Assembly: GCA_028866655.1 (NCBI GenBank)
Contig: JAGWHQ010000004.1
Coordinates: 7,674 to 71,673, forward strand
Source of the DNA: Nitrososphaerota archaeon
GTDB taxonomy: Archaea; Thermoproteota; Nitrososphaeria; Nitrososphaerales; Nitrosopumilaceae
Reading direction: 5' to 3'
DNA length: 64,000 bases
Shown one piece after another: positions 3,257 to 43,448 of the stretch; within the stretch, counting starts at the first letter, position 1; each line of letters begins with the position of its first letter. The translations under genes and the position numbers were made by a program. The notes beneath the pieces are model-generated. The model was given only the letters and a program-made list of their open reading frames with translations, ran no database searches and was not told the DNA's origin.

Positions 3257-3972
3257 TTGTTATGGTCTGCATGCAACCCACATTCTTTCTGGGAATCAGA
3301 TTCCCACCACCAACGTCCAGCTCGTAATGGTTCGCCAGATTTGATTGCACGCGTACATGGTTCACATCCAATACTAGGAAATCCTTTGTCATGTAATTTG
3401 TTATATGGAATATTGTTTTTCTTGATATAATCCCAAGTTTGCTCCCAAGTCCATTCTATTATAGGATTTATCTTGAGGATGGAATTATGTTGTTCATCTA
3501 GTTCAAGTTTATTTGCATTTGATCGTACCTCAGTTTGATCTGCCCTCAATCCTGTAATCCATCCATCTAATGTTGAAAGAATTCTATTTAGTGGATGAAC
3601 TTTTCTGATACCACAGCAAAGTTTTCTGTTGCCTACGCTATCATAAAATAGATTTAATCCATTTACACGAACCATTTGTTCGACCTCGTTCTGGTCTGGA
3701 AACATTACTTCTATATTCACATTGTATTTCTTGCGAATTTCGTCCATTACATCATATGTTTCTTGATTAAGCCTTCCAGTGTCAAGAGTAAAAATTCTTG
3801 ATTTTGGGTTTATTTTCATCATCATATCAATTACAACTACATCCTCTGCACCAAAGCTTGATGCCAAGGCTAGTCTAGGGTGAAGATTATCTAATGACCA
3901 TTTCAAAACTTCTTGAGGAGTTTGCAGACTTTCATTTAACTGCTGGATTTGTGCAGCAGTAAACTTGGGCAT
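3253..3972 (-). CDS. cysH: APS/PAPS reductase (FeS-type CC...CxxC)
   Basis: [32 protein letters not shown]-terminal ECGLH; overlaps sat start by 4 nt. Confidence 0.93.
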
Positions 3973-4058
3973 GATAAAATTTGCTATTATTCGTCATATA
4001 ATTATTTAGGTAAAACATTCATTCTAGAGTTATAAATAACATAAACGATGAAAACATA

Positions 4059-5183
4059 ATGTTAGAAAAAACTGTGCTTGTCATTTTTCCATCTATCTAT
4101 ACCTTGAATAAAATAAACAATCTTGCAACAAATGTCTCAAAAATTCTCAAGATGAAAAATCAACGTCATGATGGTGTAAGAAAAAATGAATCACTTGTCA
4201 TTGTAGAAGCAGTTGATCCAGTTCTAGCTTCATCTGCAGTAAATCTCTTATTTGGAATAGATAGAATTGCAATTGCAAAAGAGGTAGACAATAACTTTGA
4301 TTCTGTCTTGTCAGCCATTACAAATACTGCTTTGAGTTTGCTCTTAAAAGGCGAAAAATTTTATATCAAAGTTGAAGGAAAGACAAAAAAATTCCTAGCA
4401 AAAGATTTGGAAATTGCGGCAACCGGGATGCTGGTGGAGAAGAGTATGCATCTTGAGGTAAAACCTGGTTCAGAATCAAACCATGATAGACTCGTATATG
4501 TTTACATCACAGATGCGCATGCCTATGTTTGTATTTTTGTGGACAAGGGATTAAGCGGCATTCCATATAACTCACAAAAAGAAAAAATCCTATGTTGTAT
4601 CCATGATGAGCTTTCTGCGATAGCATGTCTTCAAACCATAAAGATGGGTTTTGAGGTAAAGATATTGATTTGTTATCATAATGAATCAGATTTGCTCAAA
4701 TTAGCGAAGATCATAAACAAAATACTACCAAGAATTATTGAAGAAAATGTTACTCTTCACATCTGTAAGATGAGTGGATCTACAGTAACACCAACTGCAA
4801 TTGCCACAATAACCCAAGTGATGATAGCAATAGCATCAAAGGAAAAGATTGGGAGAATCTCTTTGGGTATATCTCCAATGATCTTTCCAGCATCATTTTG
4901 TGAATACAATGCAAACTTGGTATTTCAGAACAAGATGATTCCATGGTTTTCTCTTTCTGGCATAGATTCTGGAATTTTTGAAAATGCAAAGGAGATTGGA
5001 TTAGAAAAATATATTACAAATTTGGAAAATCTTTGCAAGAAACATCCCAACTACGAGAAAATTTCCATGTCTGAGATATCAAGACATGCAACTAGTACAC
5101 TAAAAACTCTCAAATGCATTCAAGTTATTGCGGGTCCAAAAAATATACATGATATAATTGACTCATTAAAATCAAATCATTGA
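4059..5183 (+). CDS. ThiI-like THUMP-domain protein with degenerate PP-loop
   Basis: ThiI architecture (N-terminal domain, THUMP, 'KGLSGIP' linker) but SGGxDS position reads HDELS. Confidence 0.7.
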   Translation: MLEKTVLVIFPSIYTLNKINNLATNVSKILKMKNQRHDGVRKNESLVIVEAVDPVLASSAVNLLFGIDRIAIAKEVDNNFDSVLSAITNTALSLLLKGEKFYIKVEGKTKKFLAKDLEIAATGMLVEKSMHLEVKPGSESNHDRLVYVYITDAHAYVCIFVDKGLSGIPYNSQKEKILCCIHDELSAIACLQTIKMGFEVKILICYHNESDLLKLAKIINKILPRIIEENVTLHICKMSGSTVTPTAIATITQVMIAIASKEKIGRISLGISPMIFPASFCEYNANLVFQNKMIPWFSLSGIDSGIFENAKEIGLEKYITNLENLCKKHPNYEKISMSEISRHATSTLKTLKCIQVIAGPKNIHDIIDSLKSNH

Positions 5184-21901: not shown

Positions 21902-23176
21902 ATGCAACTTCAAAATAAACGATGGATGTGGTACTTGTTACCATCTCAGATTACTTCTCAGGGATTAAGCACTGTAATTCCATTATACGTAATCTTTCTT
22001 GGAGGCGATATAGGAGAAATAGCTATCATATCTGCCCTTCAAAATGGCTCAATAGCTATTGGCTCATTAGTATGGGGGAAAATAATTGATAGATTTCATT
22101 CTAAAAGACTGATACTTGTTATCTCATCCTTTTTTGTTTTGCTTTGTAGTCTTGGCATGTATTTTACCAATTCAATCTACATTCTTTATGGATTAGCAAT
22201 AGTACTCGGGTTTTTTATGGTTGCAAAAAGCCCAGTTACCCAGCTTCTTGTAATGGAATCGGTACAAAAGAATCTTTGGAGTTGGCTATTTGCTAGAACA
22301 TCAATTATCAGTACACTTGGAATGTTAGTTGCTATGATAATTGGAACAGTTGGAAGTTTTTATTTTGATCTCAGACCATACTTTTTGATATGCGCTGTAT
22401 CAAGCGGCGTATCCATGGTTTTGAGCATCATATCTGTTAAGGATGACGAGGGTATTCATATTGAAAGAAGCAGTATTGCTCACTCTCTTTATGGTCTACG
22501 ATACTCAATTAGTCATCATCATTTTGTTTTTCCAAAAATTCTAGAAGTATATGATTTCAGGCACATAATTACACTATTCAAGGGAAGAATAAGCAATGAA
22601 ATAGGCATATTCTATCTGGCTTCATTTTTTTTCTATTTTGGAAGTAACATGTATTTTACTGCCTGGACGCCATTTTTGAAAAATCAGAATTTTTCAAATG
22701 CTGATGTTTTCCTGAATTATACAATTCAAATGATAACCATGCTACTAGTATTTTTCATAGCTCCCAAAATAATATCAAAATTTGGAGAAGAACGATCAAC
22801 TATTCTAGCGCATATACCACGAATTTTAGCAGTAATGATTCCAGCTGTATCATTATTCTTCATGACAGGGACTTTGGGTTTTCCAGTTACAATAACATCG
22901 GCTTGCATGATGGTAATTGCATTTTCAATCTTTAGTACATCTAGCTCTGTGATATTTTTCAAAAGCATCCCACAAGGATTCGAGGGAAAATATCTAGGAG
23001 TAAACAGCGCAGTAACAGGCATAGGAGTATTTGCAGGTTCTCTTGTTACAGGAGAATTGACAAAATTTCTAGGATATGCCACTATGTTTCTATCTGCCTC
23101 TGCAATACTAGTGGTATCACTAGTATTGTACAAGATATACTTCCGATATAGACTATCACACAATAAGATAATCTAG
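21902..23176 (+). CDS. MFS transporter
   Basis: About 12 TM helices; WGKIIDRFHSKR loop motif. Confidence 0.88.
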   Translation: MQLQNKRWMWYLLPSQITSQGLSTVIPLYVIFLGGDIGEIAIISALQNGSIAIGSLVWGKIIDRFHSKRLILVISSFFVLLCSLGMYFTNSIYILYGLAIVLGFFMVAKSPVTQLLVMESVQKNLWSWLFARTSIISTLGMLVAMIIGTVGSFYFDLRPYFLICAVSSGVSMVLSIISVKDDEGIHIERSSIAHSLYGLRYSISHHHFVFPKILEVYDFRHIITLFKGRISNEIGIFYLASFFFYFGSNMYFTAWTPFLKNQNFSNADVFLNYTIQMITMLLVFFIAPKIISKFGEERSTILAHIPRILAVMIPAVSLFFMTGTLGFPVTITSACMMVIAFSIFSTSSSVIFFKSIPQGFEGKYLGVNSAVTGIGVFAGSLVTGELTKFLGYATMFLSASAILVVSLVLYKIYFRYRLSHNKII

Positions 23177-23820
23177 ACGAAGCGTGTTGTGGAAGCTGAT
23201 TGATCCGCAGGAGTTGAAGGCAATTTGTCGTTGATTGCTGCCTCAGCAACTGCAGAAGCCTCTTGGAGAATCTTGTCAGATTCTTCGCTTGATGCGCTTG
23301 AGTCGATTCCAAAGTCACCACTGTGGAATGTATCAGTCATAAGACCTCCTAGCATCTCAGTCATTCCAGATAGTTCACGGTCAGCCTCTGGCATGAATTT
23401 GACTAGAGAAGATTTGAGGTTCTTCATCAAGCCTATTGTTGGCATGATTGTTACTACAGTATCTCCTAGGTCGTGGAATGTGCTTAGTCTAAGCTCGATT
23501 TGTTCTAGAGCAATTCTAGCATTTCCTAAAAGCTTTGTTACTTTTCTAACTTCGGCTAATTCTTTTGATAAAACTTTACTTGCAGTGATATCATGATTCT
23601 GTGTTGCAATTACAATTCTTTTGAATAATTTTTCATCTTTTTGTTTTAGCTTTGTAATCATTCCATCGAGTTTTACAATTTGAGTTTGGAGTCTTTTTAT
23701 TCCAGTCTCTAATCTTGGTTTTAGTGCACCTTTTGGTTTTATTACATCATTAAATTTTTCACCAATGCTTGGTGTTTGCTGTCTTTGCCAATTGTTCGTA
23801 AATGTTGTCATGGTTACCAC
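23173..23820 (-). CDS. cdvB: ESCRT-III/Snf7-family CdvB paralogue
   Basis: Helical Snf7 core KLKQKDEKLFKRIV...ELAEVRKV...LEQIELRL; 'SEESDKILQEASAVAE' tail; alternative start 23811. Confidence 0.85.
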   Translation of the reverse strand: MVTMTTFTNNWQRQQTPSIGEKFNDVIKPKGALKPRLETGIKRLQTQIVKLDGMITKLKQKDEKLFKRIVIATQNHDITASKVLSKELAEVRKVTKLLGNARIALEQIELRLSTFHDLGDTVVTIMPTIGLMKNLKSSLVKFMPEADRELSGMTEMLGGLMTDTFHSGDFGIDSSASSEESDKILQEASAVAEAAINDKLPSTPADQSASTTRFV

Positions 23821-24147: not shown

Positions 24148-24469
24148 GGTTATGTACAAGTCTGCAAAAAATAATTTTAAAGAAAAATTTTTGAAAAAAT
24201 TGTTTAAAGAAAAATTTAAAAAATAATTTTAAAAAATAAATCAAAAAATATTATTTGAAAAGATCAAATTTGATTTTGTCTCATGATCATCAGTCAAAAA
24301 AATGAATCAACGTGAGAGATTACAATATGCTAATTAGAATATTTTGGTATTAATGAAATATAAAATAGAATTTTTATATTATATCATGATGAAATAACGA
24401 ATTAATAGATTGTACACTCATAGTTAAACCTTTTTATTTATGTTAATCGAAATTCTTATAAGATATTAT

Positions 24470-25384
24470 ATGACTCGCGAATCTTTTGGTTCTGGTGGCC
24501 GTTGCCCTCGTTGTGGAAAAGGCCCAATGGTAACTGATAACACTACAGGAGAAATGTTTTGCGGAGGTTGTGGTTTTGTACTTACAGAGCGCGTAGAAGA
24601 ATCCGGTCCAGAATGGAGATCATTTTCTAAAGAAGAACATGAAGATCGAAGTAGAACTGGAACTCCTACTTCACTTGCAATGCATGACATGGGACTTGCA
24701 ACAATAATTGGTCCTGCTGACAAGGATGCATCAGGAAAACCACTTTCTGCATCAATGAAGAGTACAATAGAGAGACTCAGAACTTGGGATAGCAGAAGCC
24801 AAGTTCATGAACCAGTAGATAGAAACTTTAGACAAGCCTTCAGCGAACTTGATAGATTAAAAGATAAACTTGCATTATCTGATGCAGTAATTGAAAAGAC
24901 TGCTTACATTTACAGAAAAGCACTTGACAAAGGTCTTGTCAGAGGCAGATCAATTCCAGGACTTGTAGCTGCTGCACTATACGCAGCATGTAGAGATACT
25001 GAAACTCCAAGGACACTTACAGATGTTGCAAATGGAATCAACATCAAACGAAAAGATGTTGCCAGATGTTACAGATTATTATTGCGAGAACTTGATCTGA
25101 AAATGCCAGTTGTTGATCCAATAAAATGTGTAGCAAGAATTGCAAGTAAAGCAGGCTTGAGCGAGAAAACAAAAAGAAGAGCTTTGCAGATTCTAAAAGA
25201 TGCAGCTGAAATTGAAATTTCAGCTGGAAAAGATCCTATGGGACTTGCAGCTGCTGCACTATACTTGTCATGTGTTATGAACGGAGAAAACAAAACACAA
25301 AAGGATGTTGCACAAGCTGCTGGAGTAACTGAAGTTACAATCAGAAATAGATACAAGGGATTGAAAGAATCACTCAAACTCTAA
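24470..25384 (+). CDS. tfb: Transcription initiation factor IIB
   Basis: Zn ribbon CPRC...CGGC, GPEWRSF, two cyclin repeats, VTEVTIRNRYK; start ATG 24470. Confidence 0.97.
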   Translation: MTRESFGSGGRCPRCGKGPMVTDNTTGEMFCGGCGFVLTERVEESGPEWRSFSKEEHEDRSRTGTPTSLAMHDMGLATIIGPADKDASGKPLSASMKSTIERLRTWDSRSQVHEPVDRNFRQAFSELDRLKDKLALSDAVIEKTAYIYRKALDKGLVRGRSIPGLVAAALYAACRDTETPRTLTDVANGINIKRKDVARCYRLLLRELDLKMPVVDPIKCVARIASKAGLSEKTKRRALQILKDAAEIEISAGKDPMGLAAAALYLSCVMNGENKTQKDVAQAAGVTEVTIRNRYKGLKESLKL

Positions 25385-25436
25385 ATTTTTGTAAAATCAT
25401 TTTTCAATCAAGATAATTTTTACTTTCTAGTGGTTC

Positions 25437-25568
25437 AAAAATTAATGGCGTGGCCCTTGTTCGTAGACAAACAGAGATTACCTCTTTTTATCCCACCCAT
25501 GTGGGATTCACAATTCAAGTCTACGGAGCCACGCTCTCTTAAGCAGTAGATTTTACATCTTTCTGCAT
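25437..25568 (-). ncRNA. Candidate structured RNA, element E1 (homologue of E2)
   Basis: ATGCAGAAAGATGTAAA 5' motif; stems GCGTGGCTC/GGGCCACGC, CGTAGAC/GTCTACG, ATCCCAC/GTGGGAT, AGAG/CTCT; own TATA box and 3' T-tract. Confidence 0.7.
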
Positions 25569-25590
25569 TATTTATCATAATACATCATCA

Positions 25591-25598
25591 TATTTATC
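25591..25598 (-). promoter_or_regulatory. TATA box of element E1 (GATAAATA, preceded by BRE-like ATGAAAT)
   Basis: Ends 23 nt before the conserved ATGC start at 25568. Confidence 0.55.
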
Positions 25599-25768
25599 AT
25601 TTCATATGTATTTTTACATATTTTTAAAATATTTACATAAAATATTTCAATAAACATAGACATTGTTTACGATCACTAGATTGCTATAATATGCATTTTT
25701 GAAGATTCATCAAAATGAGTTGCTTGTCTTCGACAGACTAATTTGATACAGTATGTGATCAGACATGT

Positions 25769-26512
25769 ATGAAACTTTCTGGCAAGGTTGCAATTGTTAC
25801 AGGAGGTAGTAGAGGCATTGGAAAAGCTACGGCAATGTTACTTGCACAACATGGAGCAAATGTAGTAATCACATCAAAAGACAATACCAATCTTCAAAAC
25901 GCTGCAGCTGAAATGAAAAATGTTATAGCAATATCTGGAGACATTAGAAAAAATACAGATGTAGAAAATGTTGTAAAAAATACTTTGGAGACTTTTGGTA
26001 AGATTGACATTCTAGTAAATAATGCAGGTATTTTTCCCAAAGTAAAACCTCTACATGAAATTTCTGAAGAAGAATGGAATGACATCATAGATGTAAATTT
26101 AACGGGGCAGTTTCGTTTTACAAAAGCCGCAATACCTCATTTGATGAAAACGAGTGGTTGTATTGTCAATGTTTCATCAGATGCGGGGTTGAAATCATTT
26201 GAAAATTTTGAAGCAGATGCATATACTGCATCAAAGGGAGCACTAGTTTTACTTACAAAAGCATGGGCCGTAGAATATGCCAAATACAAGATACGTGTGA
26301 ATTGCGTCTGCCCTGGAATTGTGGAAACTGATATGACAAAGCCATATCTTGGAAATGAAGCTGACAGAGAAATGGCAATAGCAGAGCATCCAATTGGGAG
26401 AATAGGAATACCGGAGGATGTTGCAAGGGCAATATTCTATCTTGTTTCAGAGGATTCTTCATGGATTACAGGTGCAATTTTACCCGTAGATGGTGGAATC
26501 ATTACTAAATAA
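25769..26512 (+). CDS. Short-chain dehydrogenase/reductase (FabG-like)
   Basis: TGGSRGIG, NNAG, YTASK. Confidence 0.92.
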   Translation: MKLSGKVAIVTGGSRGIGKATAMLLAQHGANVVITSKDNTNLQNAAAEMKNVIAISGDIRKNTDVENVVKNTLETFGKIDILVNNAGIFPKVKPLHEISEEEWNDIIDVNLTGQFRFTKAAIPHLMKTSGCIVNVSSDAGLKSFENFEADAYTASKGALVLLTKAWAVEYAKYKIRVNCVCPGIVETDMTKPYLGNEADREMAIAEHPIGRIGIPEDVARAIFYLVSEDSSWITGAILPVDGGIITK

Positions 26513-31181: not shown

Positions 31182-32114
31182 ATGTCAAGCTTTTTTGTAT
31201 TACAGAAACAATACGAAGACCTTGCAAGGGATGAGATAATTGCAATATCAAAAAGTTATGATCCAAAGTCAAACATAAAATCAGAGCCAAGACTTGTCAT
31301 GGTATCATCAAAGGTTCCATGGCAAAAGATAGCAAGCAGGGCAACATTTGCAAGATATTCTGGAACCATAGAAAATACATTTGATGATATTACAAAAATC
31401 GACTTGTCTATACCTACACCAAAATCATTTGTATGCAGGACAATAAACTTGTCATCAAAAAATACAGGCTCGTCTGCACTTGAAAGACAAGCAGGTGGGA
31501 TACTCTCAAAAAGATGGGGCTCCAAGGTTTCCCTCTCAAACCCTCATGTTATAGTATATCTCATCATTACAGATTCCAAAAAATATCTAGGATATGCAGA
31601 CTGTCAGATTTCACCAAGTCATCCAAAAAAGATAATCAAGCACCCGCATGAACTTGATACAAAACTTGCAAGATGTATTGTTAATTTATCAGGATTAAAG
31701 GAAAAAGACACTCTCTGTGATCCTTTTTGTGGCACTGGAACAATTTTGCTTGAAGCTGAATCCATGGGGATTAATGGTATCGGAATGGATTTTGATAAAA
31801 CAATGTGCAAGATAACAAGAAAGAACTTGGCTGCAAATGGATTTGATTCCCAGGTGATAAATTCTGGCTATGAAAAAATACAGGACATCATGGGTACAAT
31901 AGACGGTATTGTTACCGACTTGCCATATGGAATATCATCAAGGTCATCTGTCTCTCCAAAGAAATTGATTCAAGATTTTGTCTCAGTCATACCAAAGAGA
32001 AAAAAACTTGTAATTGTATACAAGAAGGGTCTTGAAGTGGATGATATCAGCAAAGCAAAGAAATACGAGATCTACAGACACAAGAGCTTGACAAGAGTGA
32101 TTGCGGTAAGATGA
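31182..32114 (+). CDS. THUMP-domain tRNA guanine-N2 methyltransferase (Trm11/TrmG10-like)
   Basis: [11 protein letters not shown] motif, TDLPYG. Confidence 0.8.
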
Positions 32115-33010
32115 AGCTAGTATTTTTGGGAACATCAGCAGCACAACCAACTGCAGAGCGTGGCATGACATGCATCTGTTTGGTACTTGACAGGGAGATA
32201 CTGATGTTTGATGCAGGAGAAGGCGCACAGATTGCATTTTCAAAAGCTAAACTTGGCTGGAATAAAAAAATGAAAATATTTGTGACACACTTACATGGAG
32301 ACCATTGTGTTGGGATACTTGGCCTATTGCAGACCATGTCGTTGCAGAACAGGACAGAGTCTGTTGACATCTACGGTCCAACTGGAATTGAAGAGTTTAT
32401 CGCGGCAAATCTCAAGATACTAAATTTTGGCCTGACATTTCCTGTCAGAATAACTAGAATCAAGGAGGGACTAGTCTTTGATGATTCTGGATTTAGCGTT
32501 CACGTATGTGAGGCAGAGCATTCCATTCCTGCCTACTCGTATTTATTTACAGAAAAAGACAGGCCTGGCAAGTTTTATCCTGAGAAAGCAAAGGAGCTTG
32601 GCATCCCAGAGGGAAAGCTCTGGCATGATCTTCAAAGCGGCAATGAGGTAAAAGTTGGTGATAAACTGGTAAGACCATCTGATGTAACTGGAGAAAAACG
32701 TCATGGCATCAAGATTGGCATATCAGGGGACACAAGACCTACTGCCAAGCTTGTAGAATTTTTCAAGGGTTGCAATTACATGACATTTGATTCTACATAT
32801 TCTGATGCATTACAAGACAAGGCAAAAGAGAATTTCCACTCGACATCAAAGGAAGCAGCAGAGCTTGCCAAAAAAGCAGGTGTCTTAAATCTTATCTTGA
32901 CACACTTTTCTGCAAGGTATGAAGATGTGCAAGAGCTTGTCAATGAAGCAAAGACAATTCATGATTCCGTTACTGCTGCAAAAGATCTCTTAGAGATTGA
33001 CATCAAGTGA
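32111..33010 (+). CDS. rnz: Ribonuclease Z
   Basis: FLGTSA, THLHGDH, exosite [23 protein letters not shown]. Confidence 0.95.
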
Positions 33011-33850: not shown

Positions 33851-33858
33851 ATTAAATA
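33851..33858 (+). promoter_or_regulatory. TATA box of element E2 (ATTAAATA)
   Basis: Ends 23 nt before the conserved ATGC at 33881, same spacing as E1. Confidence 0.55.
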
Positions 33859-33880
33859 AGAGAATAACGTATAAAGAACA

Positions 33881-34024
33881 ATGCGGAAAGATGCAAATTC
33901 TGGCAAATGAATTTGCGTGATCCTGTGAAAAATGGTACATAGTGAAGTACAATTCGTTGTACGAAGCGGCAAGAGAAAGCTTTTGCCTATACAGGGTCAC
34001 GCCATCACACCTTTTCCTGTTTTT
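33881..34024 (+). ncRNA. Candidate structured RNA, element E2 (homologue of E1)
   Basis: ATGCGGAAAGATGCAAA 5' motif; 12-bp stem 33915-33926/33991-34002; GTACAA-TTCG-TTGTAC; GGCAAGAG-AAAG-CTTTTGCC; 3' T-tracts. Confidence 0.7.
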
Positions 34025-34066
34025 ATAAAATTCAAGTTCAATCGATACTGAAATTTTCTTTGTATT

Positions 34067-43371: not shown

Positions 43372-43448
43372 TGGTGGGGCCGGCCGGACTTGAACCGGCG
43401 ACCTCTAGCACCCCAGGCTAGCATCATACCAAGCTAGACTACGGCCCC
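43372..43448 (-). tRNA. tRNA-Pro(GGG), CCA encoded
   Basis: GGGGCCG acceptor stem, anticodon arm CTAGC-CTGGGGT-GCTAG, T-loop GGTTCAAGTCC, ends CCCCACCA. Confidence 0.97.

Follow-up and report, generated by a model that had tools for sequence, protein, structure and literature searches.

The 64,000-nucleotide (nt) stretch of contig JAGWHQ010000004.1 considered here (the window), from a Nitrososphaerota archaeon of the Nitrosopumilaceae, carries a small RNA gene, E1, on its minus strand in the AT-rich spacer between tfb and a short-chain dehydrogenase (SDR) gene. E1, a feature with good support, belongs to an RNA family of the Nitrosopumilales that is so far undescribed. The original prediction, made from the letters of the window alone, had proposed a structured, promoter-bearing unit at this place; what it had not seen is that the 5' end of the unit is a conserved mini open reading frame (ORF) and that a paralogue, E2, lies in the same window. 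The proposed layout has the 9-codon mini-ORF (25568-25539) followed by a 4-nt linker, a three-way-junction domain in which helices P1 and P2 would be stacked, P3 variable and P4 nearly invariant, and lastly a T-run as probable terminator (25441-25437). Of the readings of this arrangement the one ranked first, to which we give a probability of about 0.45, is that of a small RNA engaged by ribosomes, in which folding and translation of the mini-ORF are coupled.

The fold had been drawn as 9-bp and 7-bp coaxial stems with a 5-nt bulge and two hairpins, GC-rich within a very AT-rich spacer, and that drawing has worn well. The sequences of its strands are exact, RNAfold returns the same structure for 25440-25540 of the minus strand (-38.4 kcal/mol, z = -4.98, with none of 200 shuffles folding as well) and the GC content is 0.40-0.45 for E1 versus 0.14-0.21 for the adjoining spacer. 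As the plus strand folds similarly (-36.9 kcal/mol, z = -5.5), folding energy alone gives no strand. Homologues were gathered from relatives of the tfb product, one genome per species and 80 loci in all, by a chain of BLAST, motif scan and then a covariance model (R1) built from 14 sequences. E1 was found in 53 distinct loci beside tfb, in Nitrosotalea, Nitrosarchaeum-type Nitrosopumilaceae and Nitrosotenuis, and in all 53 it is downstream of tfb on the opposite strand, so tfb orthologues in relatives do carry the same downstream element. About 100 further copies are present in metagenomes. In Nitrosocosmicus and Nitrososphaera, of the Nitrososphaerales, there was no E1 match within 3 kb of tfb, the tfb loci being the only part of those genomes searched. 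E1 is conserved across at least three genera of the Nitrosopumilales.

In a model-guided alignment of the 53 homologues, 95.9% of 1752 pair cells are standard-paired, a figure that drops to 34-43% once the partners are displaced by 1-3 columns. Two-sided, compensatory changes occur in 20 of the 34 pairs, and none of 500 shuffles reaches the observed values. This alignment was fitted to the structure and so favours it, but the unaligned sequences, too, clearly show the compensatory changes. In P1, GCGU...ACGCC is invariant and common to E2. The P2 strand appears as CGUAGAC, CGCGGAC or CGCAGAC, each with a matching partner strand, and P3 in other lineages has 5-8 bp and other loops, its length and sequence varying while its pairing stays. 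P4 is of another character: its motif AGAGGUAAUCUCU is almost invariant. Nitrosotalea and Nitrosarchaeum-type sequences have AGAGG[U/A/C]AAUCUCU, Nitrosotenuis has AGAGGUGUUCUCU, and one sequence has compensatory GGAG/CUCC. Two further roles for P4 were considered and set aside. A pseudoknot between its loop GUAAU and AUUGU of the J2/3 junction is possible in the window and is unsupported where J2/3 or the P4 loop differ, and a Shine-Dalgarno mimic, GAGGUAAUC matching the 16S 3' end with one mismatch, would be buried in the stem and is not kept in E2.

In which direction is the element transcribed? The TATA box had been predicted to point into the element rather than at the divergent SDR gene, and an [A/T]TAAATA sequence is indeed kept in every lineage, Nitrosotalea and Nitrosarchaeum-type alike, and also in E2, always at precisely 22 nt ahead of an ATGC that does not vary. 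A second copy of GATAAATA, at 25569-25576 of the minus strand and directly upstream of the ATG, is found only in the window and its closest relatives; not being conserved elsewhere, it is unlikely to be a working TATA box. Archaeal TATA boxes lie near -26. With the TATA at 25598-25591, transcription would then begin on the A at 25568 or no more than a few bases from it, and the RNA would be leaderless. The TATA ends 22 nt before the ATG, and undirected RNA-seq contigs end 4 nt upstream of it (25572). Leaderless transcripts, defined as those with 0-5 nt before the start codon, are 72% of the protein-coding transcripts of Haloferax volcanii and a reported 69% in Sulfolobus solfataricus, figures for archaea other than this lineage (PMC4983044).

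The pairs themselves fix the strand. There are 83 G.U pair cells that become A.C mismatches on the plus strand, where pairing falls from 95.9% to 91.2%, and one P1 pair is U.G in 31 of the 53 sequences and C.G in 21. Downstream of P1 (ACGCC) a run of at least four Ts starts within 10 nt in 81 of 112 homologues. On the tfb side about 55 nt separate the tfb stop codon from E1, and T-runs belonging to tfb come directly after that stop codon, ahead of E1; in Nitrosarchaeum, Nitrosotenuis and related Nitrosopumilaceae a further gene, orf140 (136-160 codons), lies between tfb and E1. Its own conserved TATA and ATGC, the strand-fixing U.G pairs, the intervening orf140 and the T-runs proper to tfb together support E1 as an independent minus-strand small RNA gene of about 125-135 nt and not the 3' untranslated region (UTR) of tfb.

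The expression data are assembled contigs of public runs, directionless and of low depth. In two rhizosphere RNA-seq runs, X12 and X17, the whole of 25439-25572 is on one contig, which reaches from 4 nt ahead of the ATG past P1 and on into strain-specific sequence downstream. In X17 it is the sole contig over the surrounding 2.3 kb; in X12 pieces of tfb are separate from the E1 contig, which reaches the tfb stop codon, about 60 nt beyond P1. Run X35 has fragments of E1 only, and E2 was not seen in these three runs that hold E1. Soil runs labelled 'transcriptomic WGS' (whole-genome shotgun) have even coverage everywhere, with DNA content possible. RNA from E1 is present in these assemblies, which are consistent with a discrete, relatively abundant RNA; the contigs, being undirected, prove neither its strand nor its ends. 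The stand-alone minus-strand RNA that the original prediction had in mind can thus call on a promoter, on strand-fixing pairs, on orf140 standing between E1 and tfb in other genera and on separate, though undirected, contigs.

The 5' segment of the original prediction, ATGCAGAAAGATGTAAAATCTACTGCTTAA, is a 9-codon ORF. Its ATG is invariant in all 115 unique sequences, E1 and E2 and every lineage included, and the frame has 9 codons in 97 of them, 10 in 14 and 12 in four. The gap from stop codon to P1 is 0-5 nt in 111, and in the other four the stop is six bases into P1. TAA, TGA and TAG are all used, interchangeably. Among 42 distinct linkers, 41 have an in-frame stop before P1, versus 1 and 3 in the other two frames. 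Where codon 10 is sense, as in eight linker types, codon 11 is in seven of them (TCA, AGA, CGG, CTA, AGG, CCG, ATA) a stop abutting P1, and the eighth (CGA) gives a 12-codon frame that ends at a TAG inside P1. That the position of the stop varies and the frame is kept argues, on evolutionary grounds, for translation over a fixed RNA motif.

Is the peptide then what has been selected? In Nitrosotalea it reads MQKD[VA]KSTA; Nitrosarchaeum-type sequences have MP[MK]D..[SP]ID, Nitrosotenuis has MRKDINPID and E2 has M[RQ]KDANS[GDN]K. The replacements are radical (Q/P/R, K/M/N, S/P, T/I/G/D/N) and, among Nitrosotalea-type ORFs beginning ATGCAG, there are 12 non-synonymous versus 5 synonymous variant types. 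Since only M1 and D4 are invariant, it is unlikely that selection has been for the peptide. The mini-ORF is overlapped by a weak hairpin, P0, which covaries between E1 lineages and is not kept in E2, where the ORF stays.

E2 came to light as a weak second match of model R1 in the window, and a model made from E1 sequences only (R2) scores it at 37 bits (E about 6e-6). Its P1 sequence is nearly the same as that of E1 (GCGUGAUCC...GGGUCACGCC) and its interior hairpins differ. In 16 orthologues, all of Nitrosotalea type, 94% of cells are paired versus 31-48% when slid, with two compensatory pairs, as few as that because the E2 orthologues are so close to one another. E2 follows genes for a putative RNase Z and a Sir2-type deacetylase, converges on the gene of a 290-amino-acid (aa) secreted or membrane protein and is not near any tfb. 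The leader pattern showed no third class in the metagenomes, in the window of 64 kb or in the tfb loci; its 118 matches in metagenomes are E1, E2 or random matches that lack the closing stem. Two loci, L002 (339-388, minus strand) and L006 (328-377, minus strand), have a sequence that starts ATGCAGAAG and goes on to a hairpin GTGTGG...CCACAC and to GAGTGT...ACACTC; the R1 match is weak (about 19 bits, E 0.2-0.3) and could be due to chance or to a further small transcript that has ATG at its 5' end.

Table 1. Features of E1, E2 and their neighbours, in window coordinates unless a locus is named
Feature	Position	Strand	Remarks
E1 promoter TATA, GATAAATA	25591-25598	minus	preceded by A-rich ATGAAAT (25599-25605), resembling a B recognition element
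E1 mini-ORF, putatively leaderless	25539-25568	minus	ATG CAG AAA GAT GTA AAA TCT ACT GCT TAA (MQKDVKSTA, stop)
P0, weak hairpin (GCAG/CUGC plus AGA/UCU)	overlaps mini-ORF	minus	2 pairs with compensatory change in E1
Linker GAGA, stop codon to P1	25535-25538	minus	sequence variable
E1 structured domain	25447-25534	minus	9-bp and 7-bp stacked stems, 5-nt bulge, two hairpins
P1 5' strand, GCGUGGCUC	25526-25534	minus	99.8% of cells paired; compensatory change in 4 of 9 pairs
P2 5' strand, CGUAGAC	25519-25525	minus	compensatory change in 6 of 7 pairs
Junction J2/3, UUGAAUUGUGA	25508-25518	minus	A-rich; 3' end R-U-R-G-A-A recurs in E1 and E2
P3 hairpin, AUCCCAC-AUGG-GUGGGAU	25490-25507	minus	7 of 7 modelled pairs covary
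P4 hairpin, AGAG-GUAAU-CUCU	25473-25485	minus	sequence nearly invariant
P2 3' strand, GUCUACG	25462-25468	minus	
Bulge AACAA, between P2 and P1	25457-25461	minus	not conserved; 1-2 nt in several lineages
P1 3' strand, GGGCCACGC, plus unpaired C	25447-25456	minus	pairing 25456-25448; unpaired C invariant
T5 run, likely archaeal terminator	25437-25441	minus	
tfb	24440-25384	plus	convergent neighbour of E1
SDR gene	25769-26512		divergent neighbour of E1
E2	33881-34007	plus	T-runs follow; gene with its promoter noted at 33851-34035
E2 TATA, ATTAAATA	33851-33858	plus	22 nt upstream of ATG
E2 mini-ORF (MRKDANSGK, stop)	33881-33910	plus	9 codons; stop 4 nt before P1
E2 P1, GCGUGAUCCUGU pairing with ACAGGGUCACGC		plus	two inner hairpins inside
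orf140 in homologous loci	about 3300-4500		L029, L037, L040, L043, L045, L051, L054, L063, L065, L077, L080; within the 450-500 nt that follow tfb

On the favoured reading, that of a ribosome-engaged RNA, the ribosome would load on the 5'-terminal AUG, read nine codons and terminate at the base of P1. At termination a ribosome occupies about 12-15 nt past the stop codon, a footprint for which P1 would have to open. If reaching the stop codon requires that opening, each round of translation would transiently unfold the 3' domain, and the fold of the RNA, hence its stability or its binding of a partner, would be tied to the translational status of the cell. The conserved working module would be the 3' domain, the peptide probably not being the product that matters. 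When nt 1-44 are occluded in a folding computation, as a mimic of a ribosome at the stop, P1 is lost and the folding energy goes from -45.6 to -22.7 kcal/mol; no new helix takes the place of P1 in that computation. E2 keeps the ATG, the nine codons, the position of the stop and the P1 sequence despite its different interior.

Several observations pull the other way. The T-run does not abut P1 as it would in bacterial intrinsic terminators, and archaeal termination is not, to our knowledge, known to need a hairpin; gating of termination is accordingly doubtful. The invariant sequences of P1 and P4 suggest a specific partner, the peptide is poorly conserved, and the 5' segment could be conserved partly as RNA, since P0 covaries in E1. 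The RNA-seq contigs of E1 have a depth of 2-3 and are without direction.

A bolder version of the same idea, which we consider improbable, is that E1 and E2 would be the first archaeal ribosome-gated regulatory RNAs, with the mini-ORF purely a sensor of translation and the terminating ribosome switching the junction domain, so tying output to translational capacity. The output might be a binding partner, the stability of the RNA, or read-through antisense transcription into tfb or the other convergent genes. If true, archaea would have an equivalent of bacterial leader-peptide control that works in trans or via antisense transcription.

Second in rank, somewhat unlikely in our estimate yet the strongest competitor of ribosome engagement, is a structured RNA with no coding role at all, serving as a ribonucleoprotein scaffold or acting in trans as a small RNA, in which the 5' AUGC would be an initiator and part of P0, and the early stop would guard the domain from accidentally loaded ribosomes. 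The sequence conservation of P1 and P4 with the specific partner it suggests, the covariation of P0 in E1, and the poorly conserved peptide with its excess of non-synonymous variant types all sit comfortably with it. It has more trouble with the ORF: loss of the AUG would be the simplest fix for nuisance translation, yet the ATG is invariant throughout both paralogues, the length is 9-10 codons in 111 of the 115 sequences, and E2 keeps the ORF but not P0.

Quite unlikely is a leader-peptide attenuator that lacks a same-strand gene, where occupancy of the mini-ORF would set the formation of P1 and hence decide between a stop at the T-run and antisense read-through, the targets being tfb here, orf140 in other genera and the gene of the 290-aa secreted protein for E2. 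The close approach of the stop codon to P1, the T-run that soon follows P1 in most homologues, the convergent gene faced by E1 and E2 alike and the X12 contig that reaches the tfb stop codon would all fit such a device. A simple hairpin would suffice for it, however, leaving the three-way junction and the invariant P4 unexplained, and the T-run, 5-15 nt from the stem, does not abut it; it is chiefly this superfluity and this spacing that make attenuation weak, and archaeal termination is not known to be hairpin-dependent. Moreover the convergent gene differs between lineages and paralogues, with two families only the convergent orientation is not significant, and in no lineage is there a conserved anti-terminator pairing or a regulated same-strand gene downstream.

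That E1 would be an mRNA for a 9-residue peptide, the structured domain serving as a stabilising and terminating 3' UTR, is very unlikely: the frame and stop position are conserved as it would need, but beyond M1 and D4 the residues change radically, and conservation is greater in the non-coding domain than in the peptide. A plus-strand terminator or 3' UTR hairpin of tfb, for which the good plus-strand fold and the short distance from the tfb stop codon speak, is scarcely credible given the U.G pairs that become A.C there, the conserved minus-strand TATA and ATG, orf140 and the T-runs of tfb itself, and an E2 remote from any tfb.

Known RNA classes were tested against the element. At gathering score Rfam 15 gave only the transfer RNA (tRNA) at 43375-43448 in the window, and by E-value E1, E2 and eight loci with copies from other lineages gave only chance-level matches well below threshold. 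ARAGORN found no tRNA or transfer-messenger RNA (tmRNA) at E1 and in the window only tRNA-Pro(GGG) at 43372-43448 on the minus strand, the sole match there of either search. E1 has an acceptor-like GCGUGGC/GCCACGC with an unpaired C, and is without the T-loop or anticodon arm of a tRNA. As a tmRNA it fails since its ORF has an AUG and lies at the 5' end, the ends of the RNA are not brought together by P1, and ARAGORN reports none. An H/ACA RNA is discounted by the three-way-junction interior and by the bases after P1, which vary (AUUAAU, CCAUUG, AAUUAU, ACCUAA, UUUUAA) with no conserved ANA box; a box C/D RNA by the lack of conserved C or D boxes in the alignment, the Rfam C/D models matching weakly and elsewhere; and a kink-turn RNA by G.A pairs that on inspection of the alignment are absent or not conserved. 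The Alu domain of the signal recognition particle RNA and 5S rRNA are alike in three-way-junction topology, with unfit size and sequence and with loop-loop pairs absent or unconserved. A 47-aa ORF at 25435-25578 of the minus strand was dismissed as close orthologues differ by indels of 1-2 nt in P3. A literature search found no description of the E1/E2 RNA family.

Comparison with systems of similar architecture is instructive all the same. SgrS/SgrT, RNAIII/hld and SR1/SR1P are, like E1, short independent transcripts that join a small ORF to a conserved structured RNA; E1 differs in its archaeal host, its 9-codon, putatively leaderless ORF and its poorly conserved peptide, and there is no homology. 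The trpL, ermCL and 9-codon cat-86 leaders share with E1 a very short ORF, a stop at the foot of a strong helix and then a T-run, and in both cases a ribosome at the stop would keep the helix from forming. Unlike them E1 has no same-strand downstream gene, no regulatory codon runs and no conserved anti-terminator pairing, its helix encloses a conserved three-way junction, and it would be leaderless and subject to archaeal termination rules. The resemblance to tmRNA is that of a structured RNA whose ORF, about 10 codons long, is tag-like and whose GC-rich stem, with an unpaired base after it, recalls an acceptor stem, whereas the ORF of E1 is 5'-terminal with its own AUG and there is no T-arm, third-pair G.U or conserved CCA; neither tmRNA nor SmpB is known from archaea. 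The screen of Klein, Misulovin and Eddy reportedly brought out GC-rich structured RNAs of AT-rich archaea, for instance HgcC. Such orphan RNAs are, like E1, GC-rich islands in an AT-rich spacer with a promoter of their own; E1 differs in matching no Rfam family, and the mini-ORF is unique to the E1/E2 family.

Ammonia-oxidising archaea drive nitrification in soils and oceans, yet almost no regulatory RNAs are known for them, and the literature search brought up almost none. The E1/E2 family has a fold backed by covariation, a promoter of its own and two paralogous members, and it is conserved in at least three genera, which makes it a sound addition to catalogues of RNA families like Rfam. It is unusual for a putatively leaderless frame of nine codons to be maintained and to end right at the base of the main helix. 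Control in the style of leader peptides is, as far as we know, hardly documented in archaea, and E1, if translated, would be a directly testable case of the coupling of translation to RNA structure in these organisms.

The surroundings of E1 bear on the further claim that its transcription converges on the 3' end of tfb. As to gene order that is so, and conserved: the gene next after E1 is convergent in every lineage, being tfb or orf140, and on the divergent side most lineages have the SDR gene. Such conserved order does not in itself speak for a functional link to tfb, and orf140 intervenes in other genera. The tfb product is 100% identical to proteins of several Nitrosotalea genomes or metagenome-assembled genomes, including Ca. 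Nitrosotalea devanaterra, which places the window in an acidophilic ammonia oxidiser of the Nitrosopumilales; in Ca. Nitrosotalea devanaterra itself (chromosome LN890280.1) E1 is at positions 4004-4130 of locus L005. The conserved ORF orf140 is membrane-anchored, carries the motifs HVTLADPKLY, FVPNGDSP and YYTWDY and is absent from Nitrosotalea; its stop codon almost touches the 3' end of E1. A sub-clade of Nitrosotalea (L015, at 4050-4110, L027 and L099) has about 100 extra bases between E1 and tfb, holding CAGTAGATT (in E1 sense), a perfect 9-nt complement of mini-ORF AATCTACTG beside ATGATGA, which could be a long-range helix or an inverted partial copy.

There are some lesser observations. 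On L121, a short locus with an E1 copy, the stretch 923-997 of the plus strand matches box C/D snoRNA (small nucleolar RNA) models at 23-24 bits against a gathering score of 44, and may be a C/D small RNA. In the window two neighbours were judged by appearance alone: by eye, 23173-23820 of the minus strand has the coiled-coil look of an ESCRT-III (CdvB/Snf7) type protein and 32111-33010 of the plus strand that of an RNase Z-type metallo-beta-lactamase.
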